From: Schmidtea polychroa
Lineage: Eukaryota
Length of the DNA: 64,000 nucleotides
Assembly (NCBI GenBank): GCA_044892525.1
Contig: CM097885.1
Coordinates: forward strand, 22,384,001 to 22,448,000
Reading direction: 5' to 3'
Positions 3,038 through 61,770 of this stretch are shown one piece after another. The translations under genes and the position numbers were made by a program. Numbering within the stretch: the stretch's first letter is position 1; each line of letters begins with the position of its first letter. The notes below the pieces were generated by a model that was not told the origin of the DNA, ran no database searches, and saw nothing but the letters and a program-made list of their open reading frames with translations.

Positions 3038-3084
<47 letters not shown>

Positions 3085-3729: not shown

Positions 3730-3773
3730 GCCTCCCACTAGTTGGATTACAACCGCCCACCACGACGATCAGC
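3730..3773 (-). ncRNA. SRP/7SL Alu-domain-like RNA motif (left-arm copy)
   Basis: Reverse complement of the motif at 9578-9621. Confidence 0.55.
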
Positions 3774-10267: not shown

Positions 10268-10311
<44 letters not shown>

Positions 10312-10420
10312 GTTTAATGGGTTGTATATGTGTGTAAAAAATATTTTAGGTTTTTCACTAATATTTGCAATAATAATTGTTAATAGGTTGTGTATGTGTA
10401 AACCATATTTTAGCTTTTTC

Positions 10421-10452
<32 letters not shown>

Positions 10453-10987: not shown

Positions 10988-11026
<39 letters not shown>

Positions 11027-26009: not shown

Positions 26010-26813
26010 TCATGATTCTTGATGATTCATGATTCTCTGATTCGAGTGAATACAGGAAAGAAAATGCATTGTAACTTTAATTTCAATCAAATCATTTACA
26101 TAAAGCTGTATTCCAATAACATGATCTAGATCACTTGTCATCAAATGTTTTTCGATTAACCTTTTTTCATAAACATGTCCTGATAATCTATTAAGAACTG
26201 GAACTTCAGGAATTTCGTTGGAAACAGAACAATTTAATGACATTTCAAAGAAAATTAGAATTTCCGACTCCCAAATCTGGATAGACGATATTTTTGGCGA
26301 GAAGATAAATTTGTTAATCTCACACATTTCCAACGCGCATAAATATCATCCTTCAGATACATTCCATAGCATTAAAGTTCCGTCCCATGATCCAGACAAT
26401 GCAAATTGACCATCATTTGACATAACAACACCAATTTCAAAGTCATCCCAAATAATCATAGATTTATCCCTTGATTCAGAAATAAGACTGTTTGGATAGA
26501 TGTTGGTTGCAATCTTTGATTTTGAAGCAGCCATAATCATACGACCAATGATTTTCAGTGTTTCTGGTTTCCATGAAATAAACGCCAAAGTACCCTGATA
26601 GTCATATAATGCATAGCAACCTTCTTTAGCATATGTTTCGATCATGTGTAATCTGAACTTTTCATAATGAGTACCTAATTCCCCAGTTTCTAATCGAATA
26701 ATTCTGTCCTTCTGTTTGTTGAGTTCAAAGATTGCATATTGAAATCTGTGTTGTAATTTAATGTAATTAAGATATTCTTCAACTGAAGGATCACATTTAA
26801 CATCTGAAGCCAT
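26010..26813 (-). pseudogene. Intronless in-frame chimera of cofilin/ADF, RACK1 WD40 fragments and a PRP19 U-box, with one internal TGA
   Basis: aa 1-~103 ADF/cofilin (MASDVKC..., [21 protein letters not shown]); then [31 protein letters not shown] and INKFIFSP..SIQIW (RACK1); then MSLNCSVSNEIPEVPVLNRLSGHVYEKRLIEK (PRP19). Both tracked ORFs are in the same frame. Confidence 0.8.
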
Positions 26814-28049: not shown

Positions 28050-29357
28050 ATGGATCTAAAGATGGATTTAACTGGCGACTACGCCGAAAATCAAAATATC
28101 AACGCCATTTCGAAATCGACAAAATCGCTAATGGAATGCCTACCGAAATCATGCCAAGACATGCTCACACTGAATATCAAACGATATGATAGACGAGGTT
28201 TAAAAGAAGCCGAAGAATGGATCAGAGATATAGAAGAATGGTTGCTGACAAATGGACAGCGATTGACAAGCACTTTCGATGTGATATTAGTGGCAGAAGC
28301 AAAGACATTGTGGGGAAACGTCAGAGAAACAGAAACAACAGATGTAAAAGCTAAAGCGTGGTTCTTAAATACATTCACAATTACAAAATCAATAACTGAC
28401 AAAATCAGAGAATTGGCAGTTATGGAACAGGAAGATGATGAAAGGTTTGCAGCTTTTGAGATACGGCTAAGAAAAGCTTTAGCTGAAGTTGTAAATTCAG
28501 GACGATCAGACGAAGATATTGTTCAAGACCTCATAGCAAATAAAGCACGCGATGCGAGACTGAGGGAGATACTATTGACGAAACCAGAAACAAAAATTGA
28601 TGAAACGAGATCATTGGCGAAAATATTTGAAAGTAACGAAAATGGAAACCATAAAACAGAATTTGTTAAAGCAATCGATCAAAGAACATACGCTAGCGTG
28701 ACTGAGGGAGGGCAGATGAGAATTCAACAGAATACCCAAAATCCCATGCCTACATCACCACAAAGAAGACAATCAGAAGACCCATTTAGTCACCACAGAT
28801 CAAGAAGAGACGAACGCCCTATACGCGGACCAATACAATATGAAGGAAATAACCATGGTCGTCGAGAACAATCTCCAAGAGAACAATTCTTGAGAAATGC
28901 GAGAATCCCGAATAGCTCAGAAAGGAAGCTGCCAACAATATCCATGAAGAATATAGCAAGGAGGCTGTACAACGAAAGTAGAGGACTACCACAAGCATCG
29001 GTCCCAAAATTAACGGTAGGTGATTGTTTTTGCTGTGGCGAAAAGGGACACAGAAGGTATGAGTGTCCACTGGGAAATAAATGCCTGATATGTGGCAAGG
29101 AAGGTCACGGTTTCCGAGATTGTTTTTCGTTACGGAAGGAGGTTCCACACCGATATCAAAGGATAGCGAGCATAGAAGAAGAAGATTCAAAATCTGAAAG
29201 AAGAGATTACACCGAGAACAGCCAGGATTTCAGAACTGCTCACAGCGACATGGAAGATAGATACAATGTCCTTGAAAAATATACTATATTGAGAGAAGAC
29301 AGAAAAAACAACAGCGACTCCATGGGTTTCATTTCGTCGGTGGAGTCAAGACAATAA
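28050..29357 (+). CDS. gag: Gag with two CCHC zinc knuckles
   Basis: 435 aa; CFCCGEKGHRRYEC and CLICGKEGHGFRDC. Confidence 0.92.
   Translation: MDLKMDLTGDYAENQNINAISKSTKSLMECLPKSCQDMLTLNIKRYDRRGLKEAEEWIRDIEEWLLTNGQRLTSTFDVILVAEAKTLWGNVRETETTDVKAKAWFLNTFTITKSITDKIRELAVMEQEDDERFAAFEIRLRKALAEVVNSGRSDEDIVQDLIANKARDARLREILLTKPETKIDETRSLAKIFESNENGNHKTEFVKAIDQRTYASVTEGGQMRIQQNTQNPMPTSPQRRQSEDPFSHHRSRRDERPIRGPIQYEGNNHGRREQSPREQFLRNARIPNSSERKLPTISMKNIARRLYNESRGLPQASVPKLTVGDCFCCGEKGHRRYECPLGNKCLICGKEGHGFRDCFSLRKEVPHRYQRIASIEEEDSKSERRDYTENSQDFRTAHSDMEDRYNVLEKYTILREDRKNNSDSMGFISSVESRQ
29303..29347 (+). other. -1 programmed ribosomal frameshift signal (gag to pol)
   Basis: A AAA AAC in the gag frame (29303-29309), 6-nt spacer, 7-bp stem GACTCCA/TGGAGTC; the protease ORF lies in the -1 frame. 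Confidence 0.8.
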
Positions 29358-29404
29358 ATTGTGAAATAAGAAATGAACGACGAAGAGACGAGGCAGAAGA
29401 AGAG

Positions 29405-32400
29405 ATGTACCAGACGAAAGATGGAAGAAATTGGAGTAAAATAATGTTGAATAATGCCGAAACAGAGATGTTATGGGATTCTGGAGCATCAGTAACAGTC
29501 ATGAGCAAGAGTTTGTGGGAGAAAATCGGCAAACCAGAACTTAAACGTAGTATGATATTATTGTGCGGAGTTTTTCAACTGGAGGTGAAGAAGCAATGGG
29601 ATACATGACTATACCGGCCATATGGACTCAGAAGACCAAAATAATCACAGTAGTAGTGGTAAAAGAGATCAAACCCGAATTCATAGGGGGCATTGATACA
29701 ATGAAAGAGTTTGGAGTAAAGTTAGTGAAAATCAATAATATAGAAACGTCATTGATAAACAAAATTTACACTGATGAAGAAAGAATAAATAAAGCACTAG
29801 TGGCGATGGCAGGTGAGAATAATAAAGATATTGAAGGAATGATCAGGGAATACGGCGGAATTTTTATGGCATCGAAATTCGATCTGGGATTTACAAACTT
29901 AGTTCGACATGAGATGCGGATAACAGGAGGCCCAATAATGCAACATCCTCGACGTCAACCAATGCACATAGAGAAAAGAATTGAAGAACTGATAAAAGAG
30001 TTAATGAAAGCAAATGTTATTCGATGTTGCAAGAGTCCTTGGAATGCCCCGTTAGTTATAGTAGGGAAGAAAGATGGATCTATCAGGATGTGTGTAGATT
30101 ATCGTGGATTAAATTCCATAACAGAAAAAGAGTCATTTCCTATGCCTAACACCAAATTCTTACTAGACTGTCTCGCGAATGCAAAAGTATTTTCGTCAAT
30201 CGATTTAGGTCAGGCGTATTATCAAGTGGAGTTGGCTCCAGAAATTCAAGAAATGACTGCATTCAGTACAAGAGACGGACAATTTTGCTTCAATAGACTA
30301 CCGTTTGGCTTAGCAACAGCTCCTGCGACATTTCAGAGACTGATGCACACAGTGCTAGAAGGAATGCTATTCAAGGGAGTAGTAGTTTATCTAGATGATA
30401 TCTTGGTATATGGTAAAAGTCAAAAAGACCACGATGAGATATTAAGGGAAATATTCGGAAGAATTCAAGTGGCAGGACTGAAGATAAATCCAGAAAAATG
30501 CAAATTCAATAAAACAGAATTGTGTTTCCTTGGTCACACAATTAACGAGAAGGGTATCCAGACAAACAGGAAGAAAGTGGAAGAGATCGAGAAAGCAGAA
30601 GTACCAAAATGTTCAAAACAATTGAGATTGTTTCTCGGATTAACGAACTACTATAGAAGATTCATCAAAGACTATGCCAAATTCGCCGAACCATTATACG
30701 CTGCAACATCTGGATGCGATAAAGATATAAATTGGACTAAAGAATGCAATGAGAGCTTCCAAACTCTGAAGAGACGGTTGTGCGAAGCACCTATCCTTGA
30801 TTTTCCAAGAGAAGATAGGACTTTTATCTTAGATACAGACGCTAGTTTCGGAGCCATTGGTGCAGTTTTGAGTCAAATTACAGAAGATGGAGAAGAATCT
30901 GTCATAGCTTATGGCTCGAGACATATGTCATCACATGAAAAGGGATACTGTGTAACCAGGAAAGAACTGCTCGCCGTACATGAATACGTCATGCATTTTA
31001 GAGAATATCTGTACGGAAAAAATTCATAATTCGCACCGACCACAAGGCATTGGTTTTCATGAACACTACAAAAACGCCAATCAGTCCGCAATTTCAAACA
31101 TGGTTAGCTAACCTGTCGGAATATGATTTTGAACTAAAATATCGGAAAGGCGAAGAACACTCAAATGCAGATGGACTATCAAGATTAAAAAGTATGGTTT
31201 GCACCCAGTGTCAAACAAGACATGAAGAAGCTAAGGAAGGAAAATCAAAGATTATATATATATATATATATACTATCCAAAGAATAGAAGCTATGGAAAA
31301 AGTATGGGAACAACAACAAAAGGACATTCGGTTTCGAGAGCTACGAGAGATATTGGAAAATGGATGTACACGGGAGAAAAAGAATTGTTTTCCTTTTAAC
31401 GTAAAAAATACACAAATTGATGGAGGATTAATAACAGTAGAAAAGAACAAAAATATCTTAATGTTAGTCCCAGAAACATTTGCAGGCCTGTTAACAACAA
31501 CGCTACATGAAGAACTATGTCACATTGGAGTTAAGAAATTATTTCATTATATGGAAAAGATATTTTATTGGCCGAAAATGCAAGAAACAATCCAACTCTG
31601 TTTACAATGTTGCGAGATCTGCGCTAAGAGAAAGATCGATCAGACAAGAACCAAGGAAACATTTATTCCTAGATATAGCTCTGAATTCCCAGAACAGATT
31701 GTTATAGATGTGGCTTACATGGAAATAAACGCCATAAAAAAATATATGGTAGTAATGGTGGACCGTTTTAGCAAGCTGATTTCTTTAACTGCAATCACAA
31801 AGCAAGACGAAGGGACCATTTTCAAAATAATACTTAATAGTTGGATCTATCGATTTGGAAAACCGAAGAGTATTTTAACAGATAGAGGCCGAAATTTCGA
31901 AGGGAATTTCCTAAGACAGAAGCTACAGAAACTTGGAATCAAACAGGAATTCAGCTCACCTTATCAGCACCAATCAAATGGTTTAGCCGAAAGAGCCATA
32001 CGAACGATAAGAGATCTTATTACAGCAACATTGGCAGGCGGATGTGAAGAGAGAAACTGGCACGAACTTCTACCCAGAATAGAGTTCACTATAAATAGCA
32101 GTCGACAAAGTGCTACAAGTTTATCACCATTTGAGATAATTTATGGATGGAGTGTTAACCTACACTCTAACCTGAAACAAGCCGAGATATCAAGAAGCGA
32201 ACGAATCGAAGACGCGAGATTTAACTCGAGTAAAGCCGCAGACACTATGAGAGCTATGGATAAGATAAAGAGGGGCACTCGTGTTTTCGAGGTGGGGGAG
32301 GAGGTACTCGTACGTAAAGAGCCGCAGAACAGGCACAAGGATGGTATGCAATACGATGGCCCATATAAAATCGCCAGATTTCTATCACCTCATCGAGTCG

Positions 32401-32468
32401 AACTACATTCACAAGAAGGAACGAAAGAAAGAAGAATCGAGTGGCTGAAGAAGTGGAAAAGGTCTTAA
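29405..32468 (+). CDS. pol: Pol polyprotein (PR, RT, RNase H, integrase), split by two 1-nt homopolymer deletions
   Basis: LWDSGAS (PR); RMCVDYRGLN, LPFGL, YLDDIL (RT); DTDAS, ELLA (RH); HHCC, TDRGRNF, SNGLAER, YDGPY (INT). Shifts at ~29571-29575 (T5) and ~31017-31022 (A6). Confidence 0.93.
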
Positions 32469-47509: not shown

Positions 47510-47980
47510 TCTTTATCTGTACTTGCAGATTCCCCAACAATACGTACGTTGTGAATACCAGTTCGTTCCTTATACCGAGAAAACCACCCTTAACTGGTCG
47601 TAAAGGTTTCACCGGTTTCGGAAGCAAGGTCTTCTACTTCATCTTTAGTCCCAAAGTCTTTGTAAAGACTTAGTGCCTTCGCTTGAATTTCCATTTGACT
47701 AATTGGAATACGTTTTTGGCTAAGGTCTTCTATCCATATAGATAATAGTCGCTCCATGTTAACCATTCGAGGGCTTCTAATTCTGGTTACCACTTTTGAC
47801 AAATATGACGCCGTAGCTATACCTTGCGACTTGTATTGATCTTTATTTTTCACAATGTTCCGAACTGACGCCTCGTTCATTCCCCTTTCTTTTCCTACTT
47901 TAGCAAACGAAGCCCCTTCCCCATGAAGTTTAATAACGCTAAGCTTCTGTTCTAAAGTGAGGCATTTGCGTTTTTTGGTT
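47510..47980 (-). pseudogene. Tigger/TIGD-like transposase N-terminal fragment (CENP-B-type HTH)
   Basis: KRKCLTLEQKLSVI..., MERLLSIWIED, IPISQMEIQAKAL, FTTS*GWF, GESAS. Confidence 0.85.
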
Positions 47981-48192: not shown

Positions 48193-48303
48193 CTGTTAAC
48201 CAATTATTCAATTCATTATTTTTAAAACATTTTTTATTTATCGAATAAATTCCCCCAAAAGTGACATTATATCAATAAAGTTAAAGAATAGAGTATATAT
48301 ATA

Positions 48304-48636
48304 AGTAGTGAGGAATCTATGCACCCCAGCACCCCCACCCTAAAAAAAAACAGCGCTATTGACCCATATTTTCCACATTTATATGCTTTTTTACCCCATA
48401 TTCTTCACTTTTTTTAACTTTTAAACTTTGTCCCCTATTGCCATTAACCCTTAATTTCTTCCCTTAAAAGTAAAAAAGTTCGGAATAGATGTATTTATAG
48501 ATTAGTAATTCCGAGAAAAGGTAACGGGGTGCATAGATTCCTCACTACTTGGTCTTAAGGATTTAATGTTATAAGGATTTAATGTTATAAGAATATCAGA
48601 TTACCTAATTCATAATGATCTAGGTCGCCTGATCAC
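48304..48636 (+). repeat. Left TIR of the Polinton
   Basis: Reverse complement of 61278-61610; contains an inverted copy of its first 24 bp (48526-48549) and TAAGGATTTAATGTTA x2. Confidence 0.97.
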
Positions 48637-48709
48637 TTTTAGATTTAAAAAAAATAAAAATTAATATCAAAACCAAAACATCGTATCCAACCAAAAGATT
48701 CTTTTAAAA

Positions 48710-51700
48710 ATGGAAGGTATTTTCAATTGTGAAATTTGTGAAAAAAATTTTAAAAATAAAACTGCTTTAACATCTCATAAAAAATCAAAAGACCATTTAA
48801 TAAAAGCTAACACACTAGATGACACTAATTCCAAAATCTGTACTAAATGTAAGGATAGATATTTATTTTCAGGTTATAAGAAGCATTTTAAAAATTGTAT
48901 TGGAGTTCCTAAAAACAGAGAAATATTCGAATGTTCAGCATGTGGAAAAACGATGAGGATAAAATCTTTTTACTTAAGACACATAGAAGATTGTGGTCTT
49001 GAAGCAAAAGATTCTGATTCAAACTCAATGATTGAAAAAGCTGAAAAACTAGAGTTTAATTGGGATGACTTCAATCACACCGATATAATTGCAGAAGTAA
49101 AACGAGGACCCAGATCAATCATGCAATATATAAGAGAAAATAAAAAAAAAATAATATCATCAATGGATGATGCTATAAAAAAATTTGGTAGATCAAGATT
49201 TAATGTTATAAAAGTTAAATTTACAGGAAATGTAAAATACTGGAGAGGAGATGATTCAATCGCAATGCCTCTAGATGTAAAAATTGAAACCTCATATAAA
49301 TATTTATTTTCTACAAAAGCAGGAAATAAACTTGTTAATGATATAGCTAAAGAATTGGAAGAAAAACAAGAACAGGTGGAACAAGAACTAGGAGAATCTA
49401 ATTTAAGATTCCACTCTTTTCAAAATATAGAGATTGAATACTGGAGAGGCGCACCACCAAATCCTAAATCTTTTATTCACACACCATTCACCTCCAACCA
49501 TGTTATAAATGTACAGAATAAAGATAATAAATGTTTTCAATGGTCAATACTTGCACACTTACATCCTCAAGCAACTAACCCACAGAGAGTTCAAAAATAT
49601 GAAGAATATGAATCTGAATTAATTTATCCAAAAGATTTTTCCCACCCAATGAAAATTGAAGATGTTCCAGCATTTGAAAAATTAAATAATCTTAAAATTA
49701 ATATTTATCAATTCATTCCAACCAAAATTACAAAAACTAGAAAAAATAAAAATTATAAACACATTATTCCTATTTACATTTCTAACATGGAAATCTCAGA
49801 TGAAAAGAGAGAAGTAGATCTTTTAATATTAGAAGAAGGTAAACCAGATGAAGACTTTGATGGAGAAGAATATGGTGAAGAGGTTCAAAGCGTTCACCCG
49901 AGGAGAGAAGCAGAAGAAGGCATTTCATTAGAACCAGAAGCAGAAAGCACTATGTTAGATAAAAAACTTCATTATATCTTAATAAAGAATTTTCAAAGTT
50001 TTATGAAAGGAAACACACTCATTCGTGGAGGCATATGTTGTAAAAGATGTTTATATCATTCAAGTTCAAAACTTGCTGCTATTAAACATGAGAGACTCTG
50101 TTGTAAGAATCAACCTGCTTTAATAAAAATGCCACACAAGAAAAATGCTAATATGAGGTTTAATAACTATTCCAATCTATTAGAAGCATTGGGAGTGGTT
50201 TATTGTGATTTTGAAGCTATAAATGTAAAACTAAGACGAACAAAAACTAATACTGTAAAACTAACAAAACAATTACCCTCTGCTTATAAAATGTTTTTTA
50301 AAAGTAATTATCCAGAACTTGTAGAATCTAGAGAATATTCATTTAGAGGAACTTCTGACAAAGAGACTCTAGATCATTTTGTTAAAACTTTAAATAATCT
50401 AGAACATGAATTATATATAATATTAAAATCCAACTTTCCTATGAATTTTTCAGAAGAACAAGAGGAAGAATATAAAAATGCAACACACTGCTGGATGTGT
50501 AAACAAGAGTTTTATATTCAGGAGGAGGAGGATGAGGAGCCAAAGGTTGCAGACCATGATCATTTTAAAAGAGAAAATAATTACAGAGGAGCAGCCCATA
50601 AAAAATGTAATCTCAATTGTAAAAACCAACACACATACCATTTATATTTCACAATCTTTTTGGCTATGATATTCACCTATTCATTAAGCATCTCGCCGCA
50701 AATGCTAAAAACTCTTTCAAGGTTATTGGACTTACAAAAGAAAAATATAAAAGCATTCAATATGGATGCTTTAAGTTTTTGGACTCGTTAAATTTCTTAG
50801 GGATGTCTTTGGATGGGATTGCTAAAACTATGAACCCTGAGGATTTTAAATATACAAAAGAACATGTGTTATTAAAAAACAATATTCCATTAGAGGAATA
50901 TAATACCTGTCTAGCAAAAGGAATCTATCCATATGATTATATAGACTCCTTTGAAAAATATAATGAATTACTCCCACCCCAAGAAGATTTCTTTTCTGTT
51001 TTAACACAATCAGGGATTTCTGATCAGGAATATTCCCGTGCAGTTAAAATGTGGAATCTATTCAACTGTAGAAACCTTGGAGAATATACTGACATGTATC
51101 TTTCCTTGGATGTTTATATCTTAGCTGATTGCTTCGAGACATTTTCAAAAGCTTTTGAATTAAAACCTTATAATTATATAACCGCTCCCTCTCTAGCTTG
51201 GGATATATTATTATATACCATATGGACTGATGAAGATGTAGCAGTAAGAAATAAAACTATTGAATTATTAGTTGAGCTTGATATGTTTAATGTATATAAA
51301 CATAATATTAGAGGAGGTATTTCTTCAGTACAAGGGAATAGAGAAATAAATGCTAATAATTTTACAACTCTTTATCCTAAATTTTTCAAAGATCCTAATG
51401 CTCTATATGTAGAAATAACAAACCCAGAAGATCGTAAGGAAATAATGGAAGGTCTTTCTAATCCTTCTGAAATAATGTATATAGATGCAACAGCTTTATA
51501 TGCGGGAGTAATGACTCAATACCTTCCAATTGGCAAGTTCACCTGGAAAGAACCCACTGAGGAATTAATACAAGAAATTCTAAAAACACCAAAAGATTCT
51601 CAATTTGGATATGTCATAGAATGCGATCTTGAATATCCCAATGAAATAAAATCCAGAACTAGATATTTTCCATTTGCTCCTGTAAGAAGAAAGATCTCTC

Positions 51701-53019
51701 CTGAAGAACTATCAGATTGGCAGATGGCTCAGGATAGATCGCCCTGTATAAAACTTTTATGCGATCAGACCGATAAAACTGATTACCTTTGTCATTATAG
51801 ACTCCTTCAGTTTTATCTCTCCCATGGAATGGTTTTAAAAAAAGTACATTCCATTATTAAATTTCGACAAGCCCCTTTTATGAAAAAATTCATAGAGGGA
51901 AATATTTTGAAAAGAAATGCAGCAAAGAGAGCTGGAAATGCATTTCTTGATATGATTTACAAACTCCTGAACAATGCGGTCTTTGGAAAGACCATGGAGA
52001 ATATAGACAAGTACACACGTGTAGAGCTTTTGACCAATACATCAAAAGACCTTAATAGGTACAACCGGATAATTGGAAAGCCCACATTTAAAAATGCCGA
52101 GATATTCTCTAGTAACCTTATAGCTATAGAGATTAAAAACTCTGTAAAAACTTATAATAAACCAATCTTTATAGGTTTTTCAATTTTAGAACTTTCAAAG
52201 CTTCAAATGTATGAGACCTACTATGATGTTCTAGTACCCCATTTTGGAGATCGAATATCCATGCATGCTATGGACACTGATAGTATGTTTTTAAAAGGTC
52301 ATAGTAAAGATTTAAAAAAGGAAATAAGTGAAAACGAAACCTTAAATAAATTAATAAACAACTCTGGAGAATTATTTACTTTTAAAGATGAAAAACCAAA
52401 TACTCCAATAAGTGGAGGAGTGTTTATTAGACCTAAACAATATTCTCTTGAAATGAAAGACAAACCAATTATGAAAGAGCATACAATAAAATTTATAATA
52501 GGGGAGGGAGAAGGATCTGTTGAAATAGATCACACATTTGAATATCCTTCATTCCCTGAAAACCCGAAAAGCTATAAAGAAAATAAAAGTAAAGGAATTC
52601 AAAAATCAGTGTCAAAAACCTTCACACATCAAGAGTATAAAGATTCATTAAATATAAATTATAAAAATAAAATTGCTAAAACCCATCATCTTAAATCAGA
52701 GAAACATAATATATATCTTGAAGAGTGTAACAAGATTGCTATAACAAATTATGATGATAAAAGATTTATACTTTCTGACTTGAAGACAACATTACCTATT
52801 GGAAATGATTTAATCCCTATAATAAAAAATCTTGATAAAATAAATGAAATTTATAACCTAGAGATTACAGACCTTCAACTTGCTAAAGTAGAAATCCAAT
52901 ATCCTGAAATATTAATTCCTAAACCTTTATATAATCAAGTTCAAAATATAAAACCTATAGAACTTAAATATTTTAATACTGATCCTGAATATATAAAGAA
53001 TTTAAAGATCATAAATTAA
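48710..53019 (+). CDS. polB: Protein-primed family B DNA polymerase (~1,430 aa; one -1 shift at 50621-50625)
   Basis: N-terminal zinc fingers; NKDNKCFQWS...LHYILI; YCDFEA (ExoI); CWMC...DHDH...GAAHKKCN insert; after the shift FHNLFGYD (ExoII), KGIYPYDY, IRGG, YIDATALY, KLLNNAVFGK, MDTDS, DDKRF. Confidence 0.95.
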
Positions 53020-53147
53020 TGATTCATAGGTTGGCTTTCAACGATATTTAATTTTTTAATAATAAAATGTCGACAATTAATTTAAGCAACTATAGCAACC
53101 TGATCTACTTTTTTAAAAATACACCCATTTTATAAGTAAGAATTCTT

Positions 53148-53741
53148 TTACCATTTTTCTCGAGATGTTTTTTTATTACTTATAACATTAGCCACCATGC
53201 CCTCCCTTTTTAATCTTATAACCTCATTCTTTATATCTTGTATTATTTGATTTGATTTCATTATTTCTTCGTCTGTCAGGATTCCATCTTCCAAAGCTTT
53301 TAATTGAAATAAAAATAATTTAGAGATTCCTAATTCTATTGATAAACAAACTTCTCTATATAAACTTTTCTTTTTAGAAGTATAAGATAATGAAACTATT
53401 TCAGTTAAGAAACCATCAGCCACAGAAATACTTCCAAGTATTACAGGTGCAAGAGTAACAACTGGTAAAGTTATGGGTAAAATAACTGTTAATATTGCAG
53501 ATGCAAATCCTAAAGAATAACCTATAACTTTTAAAACTGTATTCCCTTTATTCCATCTATTTTTAATTTTTTTATAATGCTTTAATAAATCTTGTAAATG
53601 TAAGGTTTCTGATTTAAATTCTTTTACTCTCATAATTTCAAGTTCTGTGGGAGCCGAGGCCTTGGAACCTTTGTGACCTTCGGAATAATATCCTGATGAT
53701 CTCAATTCTGGGTAAATTTTTTCTTCTCTTACTTCTTCCAT
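53148..53741 (-). CDS. Polinton putative membrane protein (197 aa)
   Basis: Central hydrophobic hairpin (VIGYSLGFASAILTVILPITLPVVTLAPVILGSISV) between helical regions; N-terminal IYPEL. Confidence 0.7.
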   Translation of the reverse strand: MEEVREEKIYPELRSSGYYSEGHKGSKASAPTELEIMRVKEFKSETLHLQDLLKHYKKIKNRWNKGNTVLKVIGYSLGFASAILTVILPITLPVVTLAPVILGSISVADGFLTEIVSLSYTSKKKSLYREVCLSIELGISKLFLFQLKALEDGILTDEEIMKSNQIIQDIKNEVIRLKREGMVANVISNKKTSREKW

Positions 53742-53749
53742 TTTAATAA

Positions 53750-54733
53750 TTAAAAAAATAAGACTTTATTCTTCTGAGCACCATCTGGCACCAATACTCG
53801 GATATCAAAAGAAACTCTTGTTGAGAGGATATCTTTATACAATTCTCTCAATGCTTTACGAACTTCATCAACATCAACCTTTTTTTCATAAAATATTAAA
53901 TCTATATATTGTACAAGTGAACTAGAAAAATGAATATTCTTACTTTTAACTTTATGTAGTCCATGTGAATGAGTATTAACATACCAATCTCTGTGTGGTA
54001 AATCATAACTAGTCATTATAACATCACCCTTTTCAAGCTTACTATTATAATCACATTTCACAAACCATTTCATTCTTTCATTATCATCATCAAACAAAAA
54101 GAAATAAGGATCAATAATCTTTACAACCATAAAAACACCCCATTCTTTACTGTTTGTTGTTATTAAACTTGGTTCTATAAAATGTTTATATGTATGGGGT
54201 AATAATGTTTTATTCTGTTCTAATTCAGCAGCTCTTTTTCTAATACTATGTGTGGTGTTAATGTGTGTTCCATGAGACTCTAAATTTGAAATTCTTTTAT
54301 TAAATGATGTAATCAACTCATTTATTATATTATATATTGTATTAAATTTATTATCCATAAGTTGTTTATTTTTAGAATTTAATATGCTAGTATTTAACTT
54401 TACAACTTGTTCAGTTAACAGACTTTGTAACTTGTCAAATTTATCATTAAATCGTTGTTCGATATTATTAAGCTTTGATTCTATTGAATCAATTTTTGTT
54501 GTTAATAAACTTTCAATTCTTGTTGTTGTTAAATCAGTATATTTTTTATTAACTGCATCAGAATCATCGGTTGGTAAAGATAAATCTTTTATCTTGTGTC
54601 CATTTAAATTTAAATCTCCTTTCATTGAATCACCTCTTTCATTAATATATCTCTTTTCTGTAAGAGATATAACATCTTCATCTTTTAATCCATCATTATA
54701 TAATCCAAACTTATTATAACTAGCATAATTCAT
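53750..54733 (-). CDS. Putative fiber/attachment protein (327 aa)
   Basis: GDSMKGDLNLNGHKIKDLSLPTDDSDAVNKKY (tail-fiber/adhesin neck-like motif), long heptad region, IRKR, C-terminal globular part. Confidence 0.6.
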   Translation of the reverse strand: MNYASYNKFGLYNDGLKDEDVISLTEKRYINERGDSMKGDLNLNGHKIKDLSLPTDDSDAVNKKYTDLTTTRIESLLTTKIDSIESKLNNIEQRFNDKFDKLQSLLTEQVVKLNTSILNSKNKQLMDNKFNTIYNIINELITSFNKRISNLESHGTHINTTHSIRKRAAELEQNKTLLPHTYKHFIEPSLITTNSKEWGVFMVVKIIDPYFFLFDDDNERMKWFVKCDYNSKLEKGDVIMTSYDLPHRDWYVNTHSHGLHKVKSKNIHFSSSLVQYIDLIFYEKKVDVDEVRKALRELYKDILSTRVSFDIRVLVPDGAQKNKVLFF

Positions 54734-54770
54734 TTTTATAGTAATAAAAATAAAATCCTTAGACGTCCCT

Positions 54771-55604
54771 CTAGACTTGTTTCAAATGTAAACACATTGA
54801 AATCTTTTCTCCATTAAAACTAATTAACTCTCCATCTTCATCAACAATTCTAAAACTAATATCCATTATATTTTTTCTACATAATGGTAAATAATTTGGG
54901 GGGTTCATTCTTTCAACCATTTTATATCCAACTCGCACGGTATTAGAAGGAAAGGAATATAAAATATTTGCATGTTTACCATTATTGTATGATCCCATTA
55001 TACAATCACACTCTATATTTATAGAATTTGTATTTGTTAATTGTATAATATTTTTAGATTTAATGGTTGATGGTGGATATTCTTTGACTTCAAAACCTAA
55101 AATAGTATGAAAGAAACTAGAAGTAGTAACACCAAGTCCAACATTTTTTAAAGTTGTAATACATTTTGAAGTTTGAATATCTGCTTTTATTTCTACATTT
55201 CCATTTGTTTCTTTTAAAATTGTTTTAGCTAAATCTGTTATTTCATATGATCCTGGTTCGATTGTTATAATGGTGTATTCCTTAGAAGTAATCTTTTCAT
55301 ATTCACTATTTTCCAATATACTAGGGAGAATAAATGAAACAAAAGGGAGGTCTCTATTATCACTCTTAAATATAATAAATTTATTATTATTATTATTTAT
55401 ATTAAAAATAGTATTAAAACAGCTAAACCACAAGAGTCCTAATTCATAATTTAAATCTTGATCTAAATTTATTGAATCTTCAAAATTTATAGTAAAATCT
55501 GATTCTTTTGAATTTATTAATAAACTTCTTGAATATTTATGTGACATTATGTTTGCTATTTTTTTTAAATAATCTTCCGGAAGGTTGCGAAGCTCCATTT
55601 TCAT
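54771..55604 (-). CDS. Minor capsid protein (penton, PX)
   Basis: SDFTINF..I.L...YELGL, IEPGSYEI, INIECD.I.GSY.NG...ILYSF, GYK..E....YLP, IVDEDGELISFNGE. Confidence 0.88.
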   Translation of the reverse strand: MKMELRNLPEDYLKKIANIMSHKYSRSLLINSKESDFTINFEDSINLDQDLNYELGLLWFSCFNTIFNINNNNNKFIIFKSDNRDLPFVSFILPSILENSEYEKITSKEYTIITIEPGSYEITDLAKTILKETNGNVEIKADIQTSKCITTLKNVGLGVTTSSFFHTILGFEVKEYPPSTIKSKNIIQLTNTNSINIECDCIMGSYNNGKHANILYSFPSNTVRVGYKMVERMNPPNYLPLCRKNIMDISFRIVDEDGELISFNGEKISMCLHLKQV

Positions 55605-56032
55605 AGTAAAGATTTTAAATCATTATAAATTTCTTGGATTAAGGAAGTGAAACCTTCTCCTTTGGATTTATTCAATCTATACAAAACATATAAGCTTAAA
55701 ATACCACATATTTTAGTATTATTAGGTTGAACCTGTAAAGAATTAAAAGTGTAGTCCGAGAGATAGTCTTCAACTTCTTTAGTGGGTTTAATCCCAAAAG
55801 AATCAAAGTATATAGATTTATTATATATACAAACCCAATGAGATCCTTTTTCATTTGAATTTTGAAAATTTATAATGATATTCTTTGGAGTGTCTTCTTT
55901 CAGACTCGACAATTCATCATTCATTAATATTTTTATTTTTAAATTTAAATAATCTGCATAATCTTTTAAATCAAAATTTGTTTTTGTATTTATTCCAAAT
56001 GTTTTTAAAAAATCTAATATTGAAGGAGTCAT
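55601..56032 (-). CDS. Adenain-like maturation cysteine protease
   Basis: IIN......GSHWVC, YFDSFG, Q......CG catalytic motifs. Confidence 0.92.
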   Translation of the reverse strand: MTPSILDFLKTFGINTKTNFDLKDYADYLNLKIKILMNDELSSLKEDTPKNIIINFQNSNEKGSHWVCIYNKSIYFDSFGIKPTKEVEDYLSDYTFNSLQVQPNNTKICGILSLYVLYRLNKSKGEGFTSLIQEIYNDLKSLL

Positions 56033-56040
56033 TTTATATT

Positions 56041-56829
56041 TTATAACTTCGTATACTTATTAAATTTATCTTTTGAAATTATTCCTTGTTTTAATAATTC
56101 TTTAGAAATCTTTAAAATATCAGAATCTAAATTATTATGTCCTGCTTTTTTAGCTGCTAATAGTTTTCTTAATTCAATAAAAAGATTGATTGGGTTTATC
56201 TCCTTACCCTTTCCCTGACCCTGGCCCTCTCCTTCTGTGACAATATAACCCCTTTCATTTTTATTTAAATATTTCTTTAAATCTTGAATATGTTTTGCTT
56301 TAGCACTACCATGTACTAATTCTATTAAATTTAAATATTTTTTAATTTCTAGAAGATCAACATTCTCTGAGGGATATCCACAAACTAATCCATAAAAATC
56401 ATCTGTAAATTCAAAATCTAGGTGTTTAGTATTATAAACATTTTGTGAATGAATACGTGATTTATTTTCTGAATTTAAATATAACAGAAAGTCATGTTTA
56501 TTAATTGTTATTATTTGATATCCTTCAACATTAATATTAAATGTAGGTTTAATTGTTTTACTTAAACTCACATTAATTTTAGGATCAAGTATAAGAGGTT
56601 TTATATTTAAATCTTCCAACCATGGTAATTCTTTTAAATCTTGTTTATCTTCCAACTCTTTAAATTTTAAAACTTCTAACTCTTTTATGGCTTTAATTGT
56701 TGGTCCTTGTTGTTGGATTACCTCATTTAATATTATAGATTCAGCGTGTTGAGTTGTATCTTTTTTATTATATTTATCTTGTTCTGATTGTAATTTTTTT
56801 AAAAGTGCTAATCTTTCTTCATATACCAT
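56041..56829 (-). CDS. Conserved Polinton core/structural protein (262 aa)
   Basis: C-terminal ELRKLLAAKKAGHNN...ELLKQGII preceded by GEGQGQGKG, as recalled from invertebrate Polinton proteins. Confidence 0.65.
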   Translation of the reverse strand: MVYEERLALLKKLQSEQDKYNKKDTTQHAESIILNEVIQQQGPTIKAIKELEVLKFKELEDKQDLKELPWLEDLNIKPLILDPKINVSLSKTIKPTFNINVEGYQIITINKHDFLLYLNSENKSRIHSQNVYNTKHLDFEFTDDFYGLVCGYPSENVDLLEIKKYLNLIELVHGSAKAKHIQDLKKYLNKNERGYIVTEGEGQGQGKGKEINPINLFIELRKLLAAKKAGHNNLDSDILKISKELLKQGIISKDKFNKYTKL

Positions 56830-56851
56830 TTTAATGGTATTAAAAATGGTA

Positions 56852-57460
56852 TCATTTTGGTAAAGGATCCGTTGGAAAGGGCTTCAAGTATAATCCTTTA
56901 CCATTTTTAGTTTTACAAAGGCATCCATTCTTTAAAGATTTACATATTTTTTTTAAATCTTCTTTATCTTTTGAAGATAAAGATTCAGATGTAGAAATTT
57001 GATTTTTTAAAAAATCATTTAAACCTCTACCTTTATAAGGATCAAGATAGAGACCTTTGCCCTGAGACTTTTGCCGACTCCCCTCATATGGATTAAGATA
57101 GAGACCCTTTCCAAAGGACACTCCCCCTTTAGCTTGCCCTACCTTCTTCATTGAATCGATTTCAGTTTGTAGTTTTTCTTTTTCTAGGTCTGTCTTTTGA
57201 GATTCTTTAGCTTTTTGAACTGTAGTTGCAATTCCTCCAGCTATTCCAGCAGCACCTGATAAACCAGCAATGATTGCAGGTATTAAAGCAGCCAATGGAA
57301 GAATGCCTCCGGATTTGGAGGAACTCCCTATATGTTCTTTAACTTGTTCTTTTACATGTTTTCCAATAAAATATTTCTTACCAGAGATTACTACTGATTT
57401 ATTTTTATTTGAATTTATTAATTCTTGCAAAGATTCCTCTGTAGGGTTTTGTGTTGTCAT
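56852..57460 (-). CDS. Adenovirus pX-like core protein (202 aa)
   Basis: SGGILPLAALIPAIIAGLSGAAGIAGG resembles adenovirus pX GGILPLLIPLIAAAIGA; three GKGLYL(N/D/K)P repeats. Confidence 0.75.
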   Translation of the reverse strand: MTTQNPTEESLQELINSNKNKSVVISGKKYFIGKHVKEQVKEHIGSSSKSGGILPLAALIPAIIAGLSGAAGIAGGIATTVQKAKESQKTDLEKEKLQTEIDSMKKVGQAKGGVSFGKGLYLNPYEGSRQKSQGKGLYLDPYKGRGLNDFLKNQISTSESLSSKDKEDLKKICKSLKNGCLCKTKNGKGLYLKPFPTDPLPK

Positions 57461-57476
57461 TTTATAATAAATAAAA

Positions 57477-58271
57477 ATGGATACTTGGAAACCAATTTTA
57501 AATAGACATAAATCTAAATTTAATAATAAAGTATTTCCTGATAATTTTAGATGCTTAATTATTGGATCTTCTGGATGTGGAAAGAATGTTCTTCTTATGA
57601 GAATGTTATTAGAAGATGGTTTTTTGGATTATAATAATTTAATCTTTTATTCTACAACCATTAACCAACCGAAATTACAACTTTTGAAATGTGGATTTGA
57701 AAATAAATTAACTAAAAAAGCTATAATTGATATTTTTAAAAATCAACATACATATCCCGAAGAGGTTTTTCATCCTTGTGATATGGTTGATTGGTACAAG
57801 GAAAAGATTTTAGAATCAGATATTAGTAATAAAAATGATTATATAGGGGATGGAATCCAGATCTTATTCTCTAATAAACCTGAAGATGTTTTACATTGTG
57901 ATTTACTTCCTAAAGATAAAAAGAATCTAGTTATATTTGATGATGTTGTTAACATGAAAAATCAAGAGATTCAAAAGAGTTACTTTACACGAGGTCGACA
58001 TAATAATTGTAATGTTATTTATATATCTCAAACATATTATGCTTTAGATAAAAACTCTATAAGAAATAATTCTAATTGTTTTATATTTTTTAAATTAGAC
58101 AAGCGTGATAAGAATATGATTTATAATGATTTATTTTCAAATGTTGAACCTGATAAGAATATGTTTGATATGTTTGTTGATAATCATTGGAAAGAAAAAT
58201 ATAATTATATTTATTTGGATAGAGAAGAAGCTGAAATATGGAAAAGTTTGTTTAAGGGCTTGTCGACTTAA
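57477..58271 (+). CDS. A32/FtsK-like genome packaging ATPase
   Basis: IIGSSGCGKN (Walker A, with N in place of T/S), LVIFDD (Walker B), TRGRHNN..IYISQ, IRNN. Confidence 0.93.
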   Translation: MDTWKPILNRHKSKFNNKVFPDNFRCLIIGSSGCGKNVLLMRMLLEDGFLDYNNLIFYSTTINQPKLQLLKCGFENKLTKKAIIDIFKNQHTYPEEVFHPCDMVDWYKEKILESDISNKNDYIGDGIQILFSNKPEDVLHCDLLPKDKKNLVIFDDVVNMKNQEIQKSYFTRGRHNNCNVIYISQTYYALDKNSIRNNSNCFIFFKLDKRDKNMIYNDLFSNVEPDKNMFDMFVDNHWKEKYNYIYLDREEAEIWKSLFKGLST

Positions 58272-59098
58272 AAATCTGTTTTCTGTAACTCATTATTATA
58301 AAATCTACCTAATATTTTTTCATTATTTAAATCAATGATGCTATATGTTATTGGAGTTGTATAATGTATTTTATTTATAATAAAAATTTCATTTGTCCAT
58401 TTTGCTGTGAATCCTTTTTCAAATTTATTTTTATATTTAAATATTCTTACGCGGTCACCAATTTTAAATTTTGGTTTTATAGGGGTTGTATCAACAATAA
58501 CATCATTTTCAATATTTACCACTTTAACTGTTTCAGGATTCAAGGAAGCATTTAAAGGTGTTGATTTTATAGAACTATGTACATCATTATTATATTCATT
58601 TACAATCTTTTGTAACAATTCATTGTTCCATTTTTGTTTTCCAATAGCAGTAAAATATTTCCACATTTTATTTTTTAATGTTCTATTTAATCTTTCAACC
58701 ACAACTGCTTTTCCTTCGTTTTCTGTTGAATATAATTTAATATCATTTTCATTTAAAAACTTTGTAAAAACTTTGTTATAAAATTCTGTTCCTTTATCAC
58801 ACCATAAATATTTTGGAATTCTTTGATATTCTTCAAATATATTTTCAAATGCTTCTGTAATTGAATATCCTGTTTTATTTTCTAAACACCTTGCAAAAGC
58901 AAATCTTGTATATAAATCTATTACTGTTAAAATTATTTTATATTTTTCAGGGTCTGATGATTTGGGCATAAAGACTAAATCAGCAGACCATGTTTGATCT
59001 TTTTCATGTACTTGAACTTTTAAATATTTTTTATTTTTTCTAAATTCATGGTGTAATTCGTTGGCATATTTTATTTGTGATTCTGTTGGGGTTTGTAA
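58268..59098 (-). CDS. int: Polinton retroviral-type integrase lacking its start codon
   Basis: The frame extends upstream of the tracked ORF as YANELHHEFRK...TWSADLVFM (first D), then CDKGTEF, VERLNRTLK, KFKIGDRVRI, FYNNELQK; no ATG before the upstream stop. Confidence 0.9.
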   Translation of the reverse strand, partial: LQTPTESQIKYANELHHEFRKNKKYLKVQVHEKDQTWSADLVFMPKSSDPEKYKIILTVIDLYTRFAFARCLENKTGYSITEAFENIFEEYQRIPKYLWCDKGTEFYNKVFTKFLNENDIKLYSTENEGKAVVVERLNRTLKNKMWKYFTAIGKQKWNNELLQKIVNEYNNDVHSSIKSTPLNASLNPETVKVVNIENDVIVDTTPIKPKFKIGDRVRIFKYKNKFEKGFTAKWTNEIFIINKIHYTTPITYSIIDLNNEKILGRFYNNELQKTDF

Positions 59099-60092
59099 GG
59101 GTAAATTCCATTCTATTTATTGGATAATAAGAACTATTTAATTGAATTTGTATTGTTTTTAAATTATCATCTCCAATCTTTTGAATAAATAGATTGTTAT
59201 TTTTTTGGAAAGATGAATCTACTTCTTTGAATCCAATCAAGATATATCTTGGTCGGTATGCTAAATTTGCCACCTTTATAGAATATGTTGAACCCTCTGT
59301 CATACTAAATTCACTACAGATTCTATTTAAATAATTTACATTTATAGACTTGTTGGAATTTAATCTTTCAAGGAGTTTGATTTCAGAATGTGGATTTAAT
59401 GTCCATTCAGGTATATGTAATTCAAGTGTTGATAATTTTAATTTAGCTTTTGTATCTGCAGCTCCATAGAACAATCTTTTATCACTTTCTACTCTATTAC
59501 AGATGAATTCTATAAAAACATTATGGAGCACCCGGTTATAGTTTTGAAGGAATCCGAACAAGTGTTTTAATTCAAAATAACCTTCAAATTTTTTCAACTT
59601 ATAAAGTTCAGCTCTTTTATAGTAAGCATAATTTATATCTAAACCATCTTTATCTGTATCTCCTTTATTAACATCAGGAATCCAACCTGTTAATTCACCA
59701 TATTCATTTTTATAATCACAACCAGTCAAAATAAAATTTAACATTGTAGAATATACTCCTGGATGTAAAACAGTTTCAATTTCTGATGATCCTAGTTTTA
59801 ATCTCATGTTGGAGAATAAATTTGGAAAGAAATTATTTTCTAGGGTTATATCTTTGTTTGCTTCAATTTCTAATTCAATTTTATAATATAATTTGGCATT
59901 ACAAATATCTATAGGGTTTGATGTTTGAAGAGATTGAAAAACTATATCACCCCTACGATTTAAGTTTGCAATAGATCCTGAAGTTGGGGATATTTTTAAA
60001 ATATCATTTTTTTTAATTTCATGAGTAAATTCTTTATTATAATCAAGATTTAATTTATTTTTTTCTTGAATTTTAAGATTTATATTATTCAT
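59046..60092 (-). CDS. Major capsid protein (double jelly-roll, PY), C-terminally truncated
   Basis: NNFFPNLFS, EIE..HPG, LKHLFGF, LHIP, RPRYILIGF, LNSSYYP; then the ORF runs out of frame into integrase sequence. Confidence 0.88.
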   Translation of the reverse strand: MNNINLKIQEKNKLNLDYNKEFTHEIKKNDILKISPTSGSIANLNRRGDIVFQSLQTSNPIDICNAKLYYKIELEIEANKDITLENNFFPNLFSNMRLKLGSSEIETVLHPGVYSTMLNFILTGCDYKNEYGELTGWIPDVNKGDTDKDGLDINYAYYKRAELYKLKKFEGYFELKHLFGFLQNYNRVLHNVFIEFICNRVESDKRLFYGAADTKAKLKLSTLELHIPEWTLNPHSEIKLLERLNSNKSINVNYLNRICSEFSMTEGSTYSIKVANLAYRPRYILIGFKEVDSSFQKNNNLFIQKIGDDNLKTIQIQLNSSYYPINRMEFTLTNPNRITNKICQRITP

Positions 60093-60146
60093 TTTTATAT
60101 ATTAAAATTTACACACACAATAGGATTAATTAAATATATTATGTAA

Positions 60147-60227
60147 GCCATTATAGCGGAGTGGGAATAGGCTTCAATTTTATCACCGGGAGTCCGGGTT
60201 CAATTTTCGATTTTGGTCAATTTTTTT
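60147..60227 (+). ncRNA. tRNA-like Pol III unit 1
   Basis: A box TAGCGGAGTGG (60154), B box GGTTCAATT (60197), T7 at 60221. Confidence 0.6.
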
Positions 60228-60379
60228 CGATATTTTTTTTTCAACGGAATCTGATTCAGCGTACTGATTTTAGTATATATTTAAATTTTCAGATGGATCT
60301 GAGTGGTAGTTGTCGAGAAAATGAATAATTAATTATTAATTTCATCAATAAATAGTCACACATTAACAACTTATTTTAT

Positions 60380-60461
60380 ATTGAGTATAGCTTAGTGGTA
60401 ATAGCACTCGACTGCATTCCCAATACCAATGGGTTCAAATCCCATTTCGGTCATTTTTTTT
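60380..60461 (+). ncRNA. tRNA-like Pol III unit 2
   Basis: A box TAGCTTAGTGG (60388), D stem GCT/AGC, T arm ATGGG-TTCAAAT-CCCAT, T8 at 60454. Confidence 0.7.
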
Positions 60462-60619
60462 CAAATTTTTTTTTTAAACAAAATATTGATCAGCATACTC
60501 GATTTAGTACTTGTACAAATTTTAAAGGTGATTGGTCAACGGCAACTCTTGGAAATTTAAGATCAAAAACGTTTTAACTTGAATCGATTATTTATAGTCT
60601 AAAAAATGACAAAAATTCA

Positions 60620-60704
60620 AACCTTGATGGCGCAGTGGGAATAGACTGGCACAGTGGTTCAAATGGATAGCGGTTCAAATCACATCTGAGGTTAGTTTTT
60701 TTTT
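60620..60704 (+). ncRNA. tRNA-like Pol III unit 3
   Basis: A box TGGCGCAGTGG (60628), B box GGTTCAAATC (60672), acceptor-like AACCTT/GAGGTT, T9 at 60696. Confidence 0.65.
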
Positions 60705-60870
60705 CAACATAAAATAATATTAAAAATTTGAAAATAATATTGAAAATAGTGTGGGTATCTTATATTTATAAAGTACTTGTATATTTTATTTTATTTATTT
60801 TATTTTATTTTATTTTTTTTATTAATTAATTATTTTTTAAACATAAATATGAAAAAAAAAATATTGAAAC

Positions 60871-60948
60871 GGGTGATGGTGGCGAACCGGTAATTATCGC
60901 CACCTGTCTTTCGAACACCCCCGGATCGATCCCTTTCTCAGTTGTTTT
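60871..60948 (+). ncRNA. tRNA-like Pol III unit 4 (divergent), at the head of a longer structured segment
   Basis: A-box-like TGGCGAACCGG (60880), B-box-like GGATCGATCCC (60923), T4 at 60945; same spacing as units 1-3. Confidence 0.45.
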
Positions 60949-61174
60949 CGGACCTCTTTCGGATTCGCTTTCGAATTCATTTGTACTTTCGAGCAGCACG
61001 CTTAAAACGCCGTTGAAATCGACTTCGTGAGCGAGAAGCGAATAATAAGGCGTGCTGCTATTATCGGATTGATTCTGATGTATGAGTCTGGCCAGCTTGT
61101 ATATTGGAAGAGATTTGATAAACGAAAGAGGTTGATAAATAAAAAAAAAAATGATCCGGATCAAAAAAAACTGT

Positions 61175-61220
61175 TGAGGGGACAGTGAAAAAAAAAAAAA
61201 AAAATACCACTGTCCCCTCA
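61175..61220. other. 13-bp perfect hairpin with an A-rich loop next to the right TIR
   Basis: TGAGGGGACAGTG / CACTGTCCCCTCA, extendable by AAAACTG/CAGTTTT. Confidence 0.85.
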
Positions 61221-61277
61221 GAGCAGTTTTACTATTTTCATAAAATTTTTTATTTTTAAAACTTTCAAAACCTTAAG

Positions 61278-61610
61278 GTGATCAGGCGACCTAGATCATT
61301 ATGAATTAGGTAATCTGATATTCTTATAACATTAAATCCTTATAACATTAAATCCTTAAGACCAAGTAGTGAGGAATCTATGCACCCCGTTACCTTTTCT
61401 CGGAATTACTAATCTATAAATACATCTATTCCGAACTTTTTTACTTTTAAGGGAAGAAATTAAGGGTTAATGGCAATAGGGGACAAAGTTTAAAAGTTAA
61501 AAAAAGTGAAGAATATGGGGTAAAAAAGCATATAAATGTGGAAAATATGGGTCAATAGCGCTGTTTTTTTTTAGGGTGGGGGTGCTGGGGTGCATAGATT
61601 CCTCACTACT
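61278..61610 (-). repeat. Right TIR of the Polinton
   Basis: Reverse complement of 48304-48636. Confidence 0.97.
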
Positions 61611-61770
61611 TATATAGGTACGGAAACACCCACAACAACCGCATAAAAATGTCAATTATGATATTAATCAAATAATTAATAATTTAATGAATGTTAGAAA
61701 AGTATCAGAAAAACTATTTAAATAATTTATAAAAAAATGTCTATCAAAATCATATAAAATGTACGAGTTT

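Follow-up and report, generated by a model that had tools for sequence, protein, structure and literature searches.

A predicted RNA polymerase III gene with a tRNA-Asp-derived head beside the terminal inverted repeat of a Polinton in Schmidtea polychroa

The Polinton and the features at its right end

We analysed a stretch of 64,000 nucleotides of Schmidtea polychroa DNA (GenBank assembly GCA_044892525.1, contig CM097885.1, positions 22,384,001 to 22,448,000 of the forward strand), which is called the window below and in whose numbering positions are given. The window contains a 13.3-kb Polinton/Maverick copy with the termini AGTAGT...ACTACT, flanked by a 6-bp target duplication, TATATA, at 48298–48303 and 61611–61616. 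The Pfam matches within 48304–61610 comprise a protein-primed polymerase (pPolB), an A32 ATPase, an integrase, and a double-jelly-roll capsid protein. The segment under study lies between three tRNA-like units, which are upstream of the capsid gene, and the right terminal inverted repeat (TIR), and it reads outward. Its GC content is 42%, as against 28% for the whole Polinton. The features of the element that concern the segment are the following.

48304–61610, no strand assigned: Polinton/Maverick copy carrying the RNA gene (372-nt inverted repeat, flanks, Pfam matches)
about 60147–60227 and about 60383–60461: two further tRNA-like units (from the sequence)
60626–60704, + strand: tRNA-like unit accompanying the RNA gene, with two A-box-like and two B-box-like motifs (within 60626–60696) and T9 at 60696–60704
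60871–61230, + strand: predicted polymerase III RNA gene (fold z, covariation, lengths; ends inferred from the positions of promoter and T runs)
60873–60933, + strand: tRNA-Asp(GTC)-derived head, folded anew as a local domain of two helices (alignment to host tRNA-Asp)
60880–60890, + strand: A-box-like motif TGGCGAACCGG at the tRNA T8 position (tRNA-Asp register)
60923–60933, + strand: B box GGATCGATCCC (tRNA-Asp register), the 5' part of which pairs with 61152–61159 in the RNA
60921–61159, + strand: central domain, closed by 60921–28/61152–59, with the helices 60951–60/61124–33 and 60992–61003/61048–59 (pair probabilities 0.95–0.97)
60945–60948, + strand: the only internal T4, which follows the head and is a possible leaky terminator
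61061–61121, + strand: 25-bp G-U-rich hairpin with a 7-nt loop, of pre-miRNA size
61167–61230, + strand: 3' terminal hairpin with an A-rich loop of 11–28 nt, ending in T4
61227–61251, + strand: terminator zone of T4, T4 (T5 in many copies), and T6 (from the sequence; the depth of contigs guessed to be RNA falls here)
61250–61610, no strand assigned: right TIR, with its own self-complementary end (about 61364–61612)

The Polinton copy in the window looks defective: its polymerase (48710–53019) is split into two frames, its capsid frame (59046–60092) encodes 348 amino acids versus about 433 in most copies, and about 0.9 kb near 59100 is missing relative to L037 and L039. Polintons in this genome are mosaic, near-identical capsid, integrase, and ATPase genes being combined with polymerases that are 63–99% identical and with different TIRs (L031–L039 and L192–L207); L038 has a duplicated polymerase end at an apparent junction. 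The TIR (61364–61612 and 48302–48550) contains an internal 25-bp inverted copy of the element end, with which each terminus can fold back as single-stranded DNA, and other Polinton lineages have the same fold-back plan with a different sequence. Elsewhere, the window holds a palindrome of about 10.6 kb (1380–11978; arms 98–100% complementary, 652-nt centre), a Penelope-like reverse transcriptase with GIY-YIG (12217–13116), a cofilin/WD40 exon (26346–26813), an LTR retrotransposon with reverse transcriptase, RNase H, and integrase (28050–32468), and a Tc5 transposase fragment (47590–47880).

Among the tRNA-like units, 60383–60453 gave an Rfam tRNA match with an E value of 0.0045, below the gathering score. 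The unit at 60626–60696 is tandemly duplicated in several copies, and its terminator is T7–T9 in the copies scored. The tRNA genes of the host itself stand in long tandem arrays (Asp-Gly with a period of 398 bp and 1,727 pattern matches; Lys with a period of 424 bp), located at G000:C1:157.87–157.94 Mb (L113–L122) and C4:76.66 Mb (L123–L145).

Promoter, terminators, and fold of the segment

Host tRNA-Asp(GTC) aligned to 60889–60933 without gaps at 30 of 45 identical positions, a score that 0 of 1000 shuffles reached; for the best of three other tRNA types tested, 22 of 1000 shuffles reached the score. In the tRNA register, 60880 corresponds to T8 and 60924 to G53, with 44 nt between them. The B box, GGATCGATCCC, fits the consensus GWTCRANNC. 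In 63 head occurrences, a few loci of which are the same copy counted twice, the A box was kept in 61 and the B box in 62, and common variation in the B box falls at the free positions only. The segment thus has the parts of a type 2 polymerase III gene, namely internal A and B boxes at tRNA spacing and a terminal T run without any long internal T run. Of 82 copies, 80 have a longest internal T run of exactly 4, and in 81 no such run exceeds 4. The A runs of the RNA (61141–50, 61160–70, and 61188–204), by contrast, expand to more than 20 in the copies compared, an asymmetry that is expected of a polymerase III gene on the + strand. The predicted gene is 360 nt long in the window copy; other copies have a median of about 370 nt, and the range is 360–385 nt.

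ARAGORN called no tRNA on the segment, and the head is not a cloverleaf; because the B-box strand pairs over a long range with 61152–59 in the predicted fold, no cloverleaf would form. An earlier note on this DNA had proposed that the segment might be read through from a tRNA-like "unit 4" ending in T4 only. By our matching of its numbering, that unit is probably the tRNA-Asp-derived head, 60871–60948, which is inside the segment; read-through past T4 (60945–48) fits if so, and it is unlikely to come from the upstream tRNA-like unit, which ends in T9.

The + strand of the segment folds as RNA with −136.4 kcal/mol (z −9.6), and 0 of 100 shuffles were as good; the z value of the − strand is −6.1. 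A second copy gave z −9.7 on the + strand, and the + strand fold was more stable than that of the − strand in 81 of 82 copies. As DNA, the segment folds on both strands (z −5.6 and −4.9). G-U pairs make up 17 of the 112 pairs of the + strand fold. The pair probabilities of the main helices are 0.86–0.99, and those of three short helices at 61011–61040 are only 0.64–0.72. The 5' and 3' ends of the RNA lie in separate hairpins, with no terminal stem joining them, and the A-rich loop of the 3' hairpin measures 11–28 nt in all of the 78 copies measured. The most strand-specific element of the segment is the hairpin at 61061–61121, in which nine of the pairs are G-U; it forms on the + strand (z −4.9) and not on the − strand (z +1.1), and it was absent from the list of pairings in the earlier note.

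The complementarities which that note did list (60878–85/60897–904, 60921–27/61153–59, 60952–61/61123–32, and 60992–61001/61050–59) are all present, and its 13-bp hairpin was confirmed at 61175–87/61208–20. The comparison with shuffles that it had proposed on both strands gave folding energies different from those of the shuffles, and the structured RNA of about 300 nt that it envisaged is supported, for the + strand, by the fold z values, covariation, and constraint. Two of its other observations hold as such and do not exceed chance. The crossing match 60963–70/61036–43 exists, and 63% of 500 shuffles likewise contain an 8-bp inverted match somewhere; the pseudoknot drawn from it is not supported, as its central pair is A-C in 14 of 78 ungapped copies without compensation. 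The five (C/T)TTTCG motifs are found at 60908, 60945, 60956, 60968, and 60986; in 349 of 2000 shuffles one complex 5-mer or another is present five times, although TTTCG itself reaches that number in 0 of 2000.

No Rfam family reached its gathering score anywhere in the window. With the limit relaxed to E 10, the surroundings of the segment gave 14 matches, all of them below gathering score and none to a ribozyme. The longest ATG frame in the segment is 36 codons. Palindromic loops that could serve as kissing sites were not above chance (8 six-mers, reached by 477 of 2000 shuffles). The candidates 7SK, SRP, RNase P/MRP, and telomerase RNA were dropped, as neither Rfam nor motifs supported them.

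Variation, constraint, and distribution of the copies

In 31 aligned copies, 97.3% of the cells (one pair in one copy) are paired. Both sides have changed in 21 cells, a number that 0 of 500 shuffles reached; these cells belong to only 2 pairs, and 357 of 500 shuffles reach that count of pairs. Across 82 distinct copies, two pairs are doubly compensated. The pair 61000/61051 is A-U in 29, G-C in 24, G-U in 20, A-C in 6, and gapped in 3, and the pair 61179/61216 is G-C in 47, A-U in 30, A-C in 3, and G-U in 2. In the first 30 copies, which are near-identical, no coupling was visible at 61000/61051 (both sides changed in 1 of 30), and coupling appeared with more divergent copies. The variants were tested in the 82 distinct copies over the 86 pairs of eight well-supported helices, a set that does not include the 5' closing helix, any helix next to an A run, or the weakly supported ones at 61011–61040. 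Pairing was kept by 11 of 13 variants shared by at least 3 copies versus 10 of 36 rare variants (Fisher p 7e-4), and the shared variants gave p 0.044 against an all-transition null; since the copies are related and recombine, these p values are overstated, and the figures give a direction and are not independent trials. In the hairpin at 61061–61121, all cells are paired in 31 of 31 aligned copies, and nine pairs vary on one side only, exchanging G-U and Watson-Crick pairs.

Divergence from the window copy was measured in the 21 copies that have both capsid gene and RNA. It amounts to 3.7% in stems and 3.5% in loops. By comparison, the upstream unit diverges by 6.7%, the spacers by 9.1%, four-fold capsid sites by 9.9%, and second codon positions by 1.8%. 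The RNA body of about 300 nt is as constrained as the head, and its pairing is kept. The window copy is without a 17-nt insert that follows 60933 in 67 of the 82 distinct copies.

Contigs from four sequencing runs guessed to be RNA (X1 and X2 from one study, X3 and X4 from another), which carry no strand or ends, concentrate on 60942–61185 and drop sharply after 61246; the runs were found by using this very stretch, and contig depth cannot rank genes. In the DNA-like run X6, depth changes little between the capsid gene and 61246 except for drops at AT runs, and coverage extends into the TIR. One X4 contig spans 60934–61204 with 25 extra letters that match the common insert variant and therefore crosses the internal T4. 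The A-U forms of 61000/61051 and 61179/61216 are almost alone in the contigs guessed to be RNA versus 37–67% in X6, which may reflect few active copies or another strain. These observations are a weak hint of transcription with an end at the T runs, and the internal A runs could favour capture by oligo-dT. The contigs guessed to be RNA also cover the tRNA-like unit at 60626–60696 more than the other two units.

A 15-nt motif of the head has 2,951 exact matches in the genome (control, 0), and the capsid family gave 3,512 first-look candidates. The first 30 head-motif matches by position all lie in Polinton-end DNA; the tRNA-like unit corresponding to 60626–60696 is upstream in 29 of them, a polymerase start adjoins 11, and a capsid gene adjoins 14. 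The 30 best-match copies likewise all lie in Polinton-end DNA, such that 60 of about 2,950 loci were examined for free copies. Polinton lineages that differ in polymerase and TIR share the RNA gene. Where the polymerase is about 65% identical and the TIR is a different one, the tRNA-like unit and the RNA are inside both TIRs.

Some elements do without the segment. Among 40 capsid loci chosen for divergence, 25 had a full-span match, 3 had a partial match, and 12 had none within about 2.7 kb, as judged by a sequence-only profile, which can miss relatives that share the structure only. Eight of the 12 were traced to the far end: six possess two TIRs that are 94–99% identical together with the gene set and have no profile match at either end, and the other two had no TIR partner in the DNA fetched. 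Six complete elements without the segment make it an optional passenger and not a required cis signal, and its absence from these two-TIR elements fits a trans-acting accessory.

In regards to other genomes, searches of viral contigs by capsid or head motif, in collections poor in animal DNA, found no homologue. A stem-pattern search gave nine matches, which were unrelated (best profile E 2.9), and 33 metagenome loci with capsids 25–53% identical, most of them short and few reaching the element end, had no segment match. One metagenome contig, L045, carries Polinton polymerase, protease-like, minor-capsid-like, and capsid genes, its capsid being 51% identical to the first sequence of the alignment. 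On its − strand, 5436–5515 forms a hairpin that matches Rfam mir-754 at E 1e-8; the 48.6 bits of this match fall short of the gathering score, which is 84. The miR-754 family is described as planarian (PMC3854530). The match suggests that this catalogued microRNA family may be Polinton-borne, and it is a hint that small-RNA genes could be more widespread among Polintons of this group.

Relation to known RNAs and possible function

The segment is very probably a polymerase III RNA gene. Its location and its descent from tRNA-Asp are established, as are the register of the boxes, a fold specific to one strand, variation that preserves pairs, constraint, and the existence of complete elements that lack it. 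Its RNA resembles adenovirus VA RNA and the TMERs of murine gammaherpesvirus 68 in design and is a member of neither family. VA RNA is described as a polymerase III RNA with internal boxes, a U-run end, and a proposed tRNA origin that competes for Exportin-5 and Dicer in the miRNA pathway; it is defined there by a terminal stem that joins the 5' and 3' ends and engages both proteins, an apical stem, and a central domain (PMC7589676). Adenovirus VA RNAI and VA RNAII share with the segment the internal A and B boxes, the oligo-U end, the strong fold, and a linear double-stranded DNA carrier with a protein-primed polymerase, and the tRNA origin that is proposed for them is visible in the segment RNA. 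They differ in length (about 160 nt versus about 360–385 nt) and in their ends, which are joined by a terminal stem in VA RNA and lie in separate hairpins here. A paired GGGU-ACCC, which VA RNA has in its central domain, occurs here as 60871–74/60917–20, at the 5' end and not in a central position; four bases may be chance, and individual pairs of this helix are disrupted in as many as 3 of 30 copies. The Rfam model of VA RNA had no match around the segment up to E 10. The main target of VA RNA, PKR, is a vertebrate protein.

Rodent BC1 RNA and tRNA-derived SINEs combine a tRNA head, a unique body, and A-rich stretches, with a 3' stem-loop in BC1, as does the segment. Unlike them, the segment has neither free-standing copies (60 loci) nor an A tail, and it has a large conserved central fold and is spread by Polintons. 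A TMER is a polymerase III RNA in which a tRNA-derived 5' part with a type 2 promoter is followed by miRNA hairpins, and TMERs come as clustered tRNA-like units (PMC8223928). The unit at 60626–60696, with its repeated A-box-like motifs, adds to this likeness. The segment differs in that its head is refolded and not called as a tRNA, so that tRNA ancestry is present without the cloverleaf of a 5' tRNA-like structure, in that its candidate hairpin stands in a branched domain, and in that its carrier is a Polinton. Polinton-like viruses of protists are described as carrying tRNA genes and a few miRNA and snRNA Rfam matches, which are read as codon helpers (PMC12220804); those are matches to known families, whereas the RNA of the segment is long, belongs to no known family, and is tRNA-derived at its start only.

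If the RNA were a TMER-like precursor, the hairpin at 61061–61121 would be released from it and diced, with the 3' arm as the most likely source of the microRNA. The hairpin has the size of a pre-miRNA and is unfailingly paired in the aligned copies, 61095–61104 differ in only 1 of 82 copies, as a seed might, and a related Polinton, L045, has the mir-754-like hairpin. We nevertheless consider such a precursor unlikely, since both arms vary (of 82 copies, 61067 in 24, 61080 in 10, 61084 in 8, 61106 in 10, and 61116 in 19) and the 25-bp stem, which opens into a multi-branch junction, falls short of the roughly 35 bp that Drosha needs. The head, moreover, is not a cloverleaf and lies about 130 nt from the hairpin, no Rfam miRNA family matches 61061–61121, and the best complement of either arm within the element is 11 nt. 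It is distinctly less probable that polymerase III occupancy itself is what matters, with the tRNA-like units and the gene forming a TFIIIC-bound barrier that keeps the element ends open and the RNA fold stabilising a by-product. tRNA genes can act as chromatin barriers, and the gene does stand at element ends beside degenerate tRNA-like units, often doubled in both TIRs; a barrier, however, needs only the boxes, yet the 300-nt body is constrained like the head with its pairing kept. A BC1-like translation regulator would have a tRNA head in refolded form, A runs left unpaired for poly(A)-binding protein, and a stem-loop at the 3' end; this reading leaves the large central domain without explanation. 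That layout is present (head, the three A runs, and the terminal hairpin with its A-rich loop), but the A runs vary widely, 61141–50 being nearly lost in several copies, and slippage alone can lengthen A runs in a gene that forbids T runs, which makes this role improbable.

We regard it as very improbable that a tRNA-derived SINE was inserted once into a Polinton and is now a functionless rider. The segment shares the SINE plan of a tRNA head, a unique body, and A-rich parts, and its absence from some elements would suit a rider, but all of the 30 positional and 30 best matches are in Polinton-end DNA, the segment ends in a hairpin and T runs and not in an A tail, and its divergence is one third of that at neutral sites with pairing kept. 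A folded single-stranded DNA signal for replication or packaging, which the earlier note had also offered, would account for a position beside or inside the TIR and for the fold that each strand can adopt as DNA. The six segment-less elements with two matching TIRs and the gene set largely refute a required cis signal, and an optional packaging enhancer would be compatible with them; overall we give this reading very little weight. The most constrained hairpin relies on G-U pairs and forms on a single strand, the intermediate at 61000/61051 is G-U in 20 copies versus A-C in 6, and the TIR already has its own terminal fold. Least credible is a ribozyme, whether self-cleaving or splicing, in which the crossing helix would form a pseudoknot. 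The size, the GC content, and the crossing 8-bp match would suit one; Rfam gave no family at gathering score and no ribozyme among the 14 matches up to E 10, ribozyme core motifs are absent on both strands except for a hammerhead-like 7-mer in 4 of 82 copies, and the crossing helix is broken in 14 of 78 copies without compensation.

The function that we favour, tentatively and by analogy with adenovirus VA RNA, is that of a decoy against host proteins of double-stranded RNA and small-RNA silencing; we find it plausible, although short of probable. The A and B boxes of the tRNA-Asp-derived head would recruit RNA polymerase III, with transcription starting near 60871. The polymerase would mostly pass the internal T4 and stop at 61227–61251, giving an RNA of 360–385 nt, in which the long-range helix would take up the B-box strand, preclude the cloverleaf, and so avoid tRNA processing. 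The long imperfect helices might then bind Dicer-type or other double-stranded RNA-binding proteins in trans, and their sequestration could make silencing of the element less effective, in the way that VA RNA works for adenovirus. Constraint acts on shape and on loop sequence alike, while both hairpin arms tolerate pair-preserving changes, and a protein-binding decoy thus fits better than a guide RNA. Against the decoy, the VA-type terminal stem that engages Exportin-5 and Dicer is missing from the segment RNA. Planarian Polintons are reported to be repressed by the PIWI-piRNA system, in which PIWI silencing acts on chromatin (PMC8532177), and a double-stranded RNA decoy need not relieve silencing of that kind.

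The gene would represent a viral-type polymerase III regulatory RNA, and we found none described in a Polinton carrier among the titles and opening lines of abstracts that literature searches outside subscription papers and Repbase entries returned; searches with short motifs of the long hairpin returned unrelated plant papers only. Polintons are usually treated as protein-only elements, and their viral life has been inferred from capsid genes. A wider proposal is that this lineage turned host tRNA-Asp into an abundant counter-defence polymerase III RNA that blunts small-RNA silencing, by the route of origin proposed for VA RNA and with the tRNA ancestry still readable, and that planarian microRNAs such as mir-754 are Polinton genes; taken as a whole, it is rather doubtful. 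If it is true, the selected RNA gene would be a counter-defence module such as those of adenoviruses and herpesviruses, in an invertebrate, which defends itself mainly by RNA silencing, and the route from tRNA to viral RNA that has been proposed for VA RNA would be visible in it. Since the same genome contains both lineages that have the gene and lineages that lack it, and since knockdown of the RNA is feasible, the rise of a Polinton to thousands of copies under PIWI control becomes open to direct testing.
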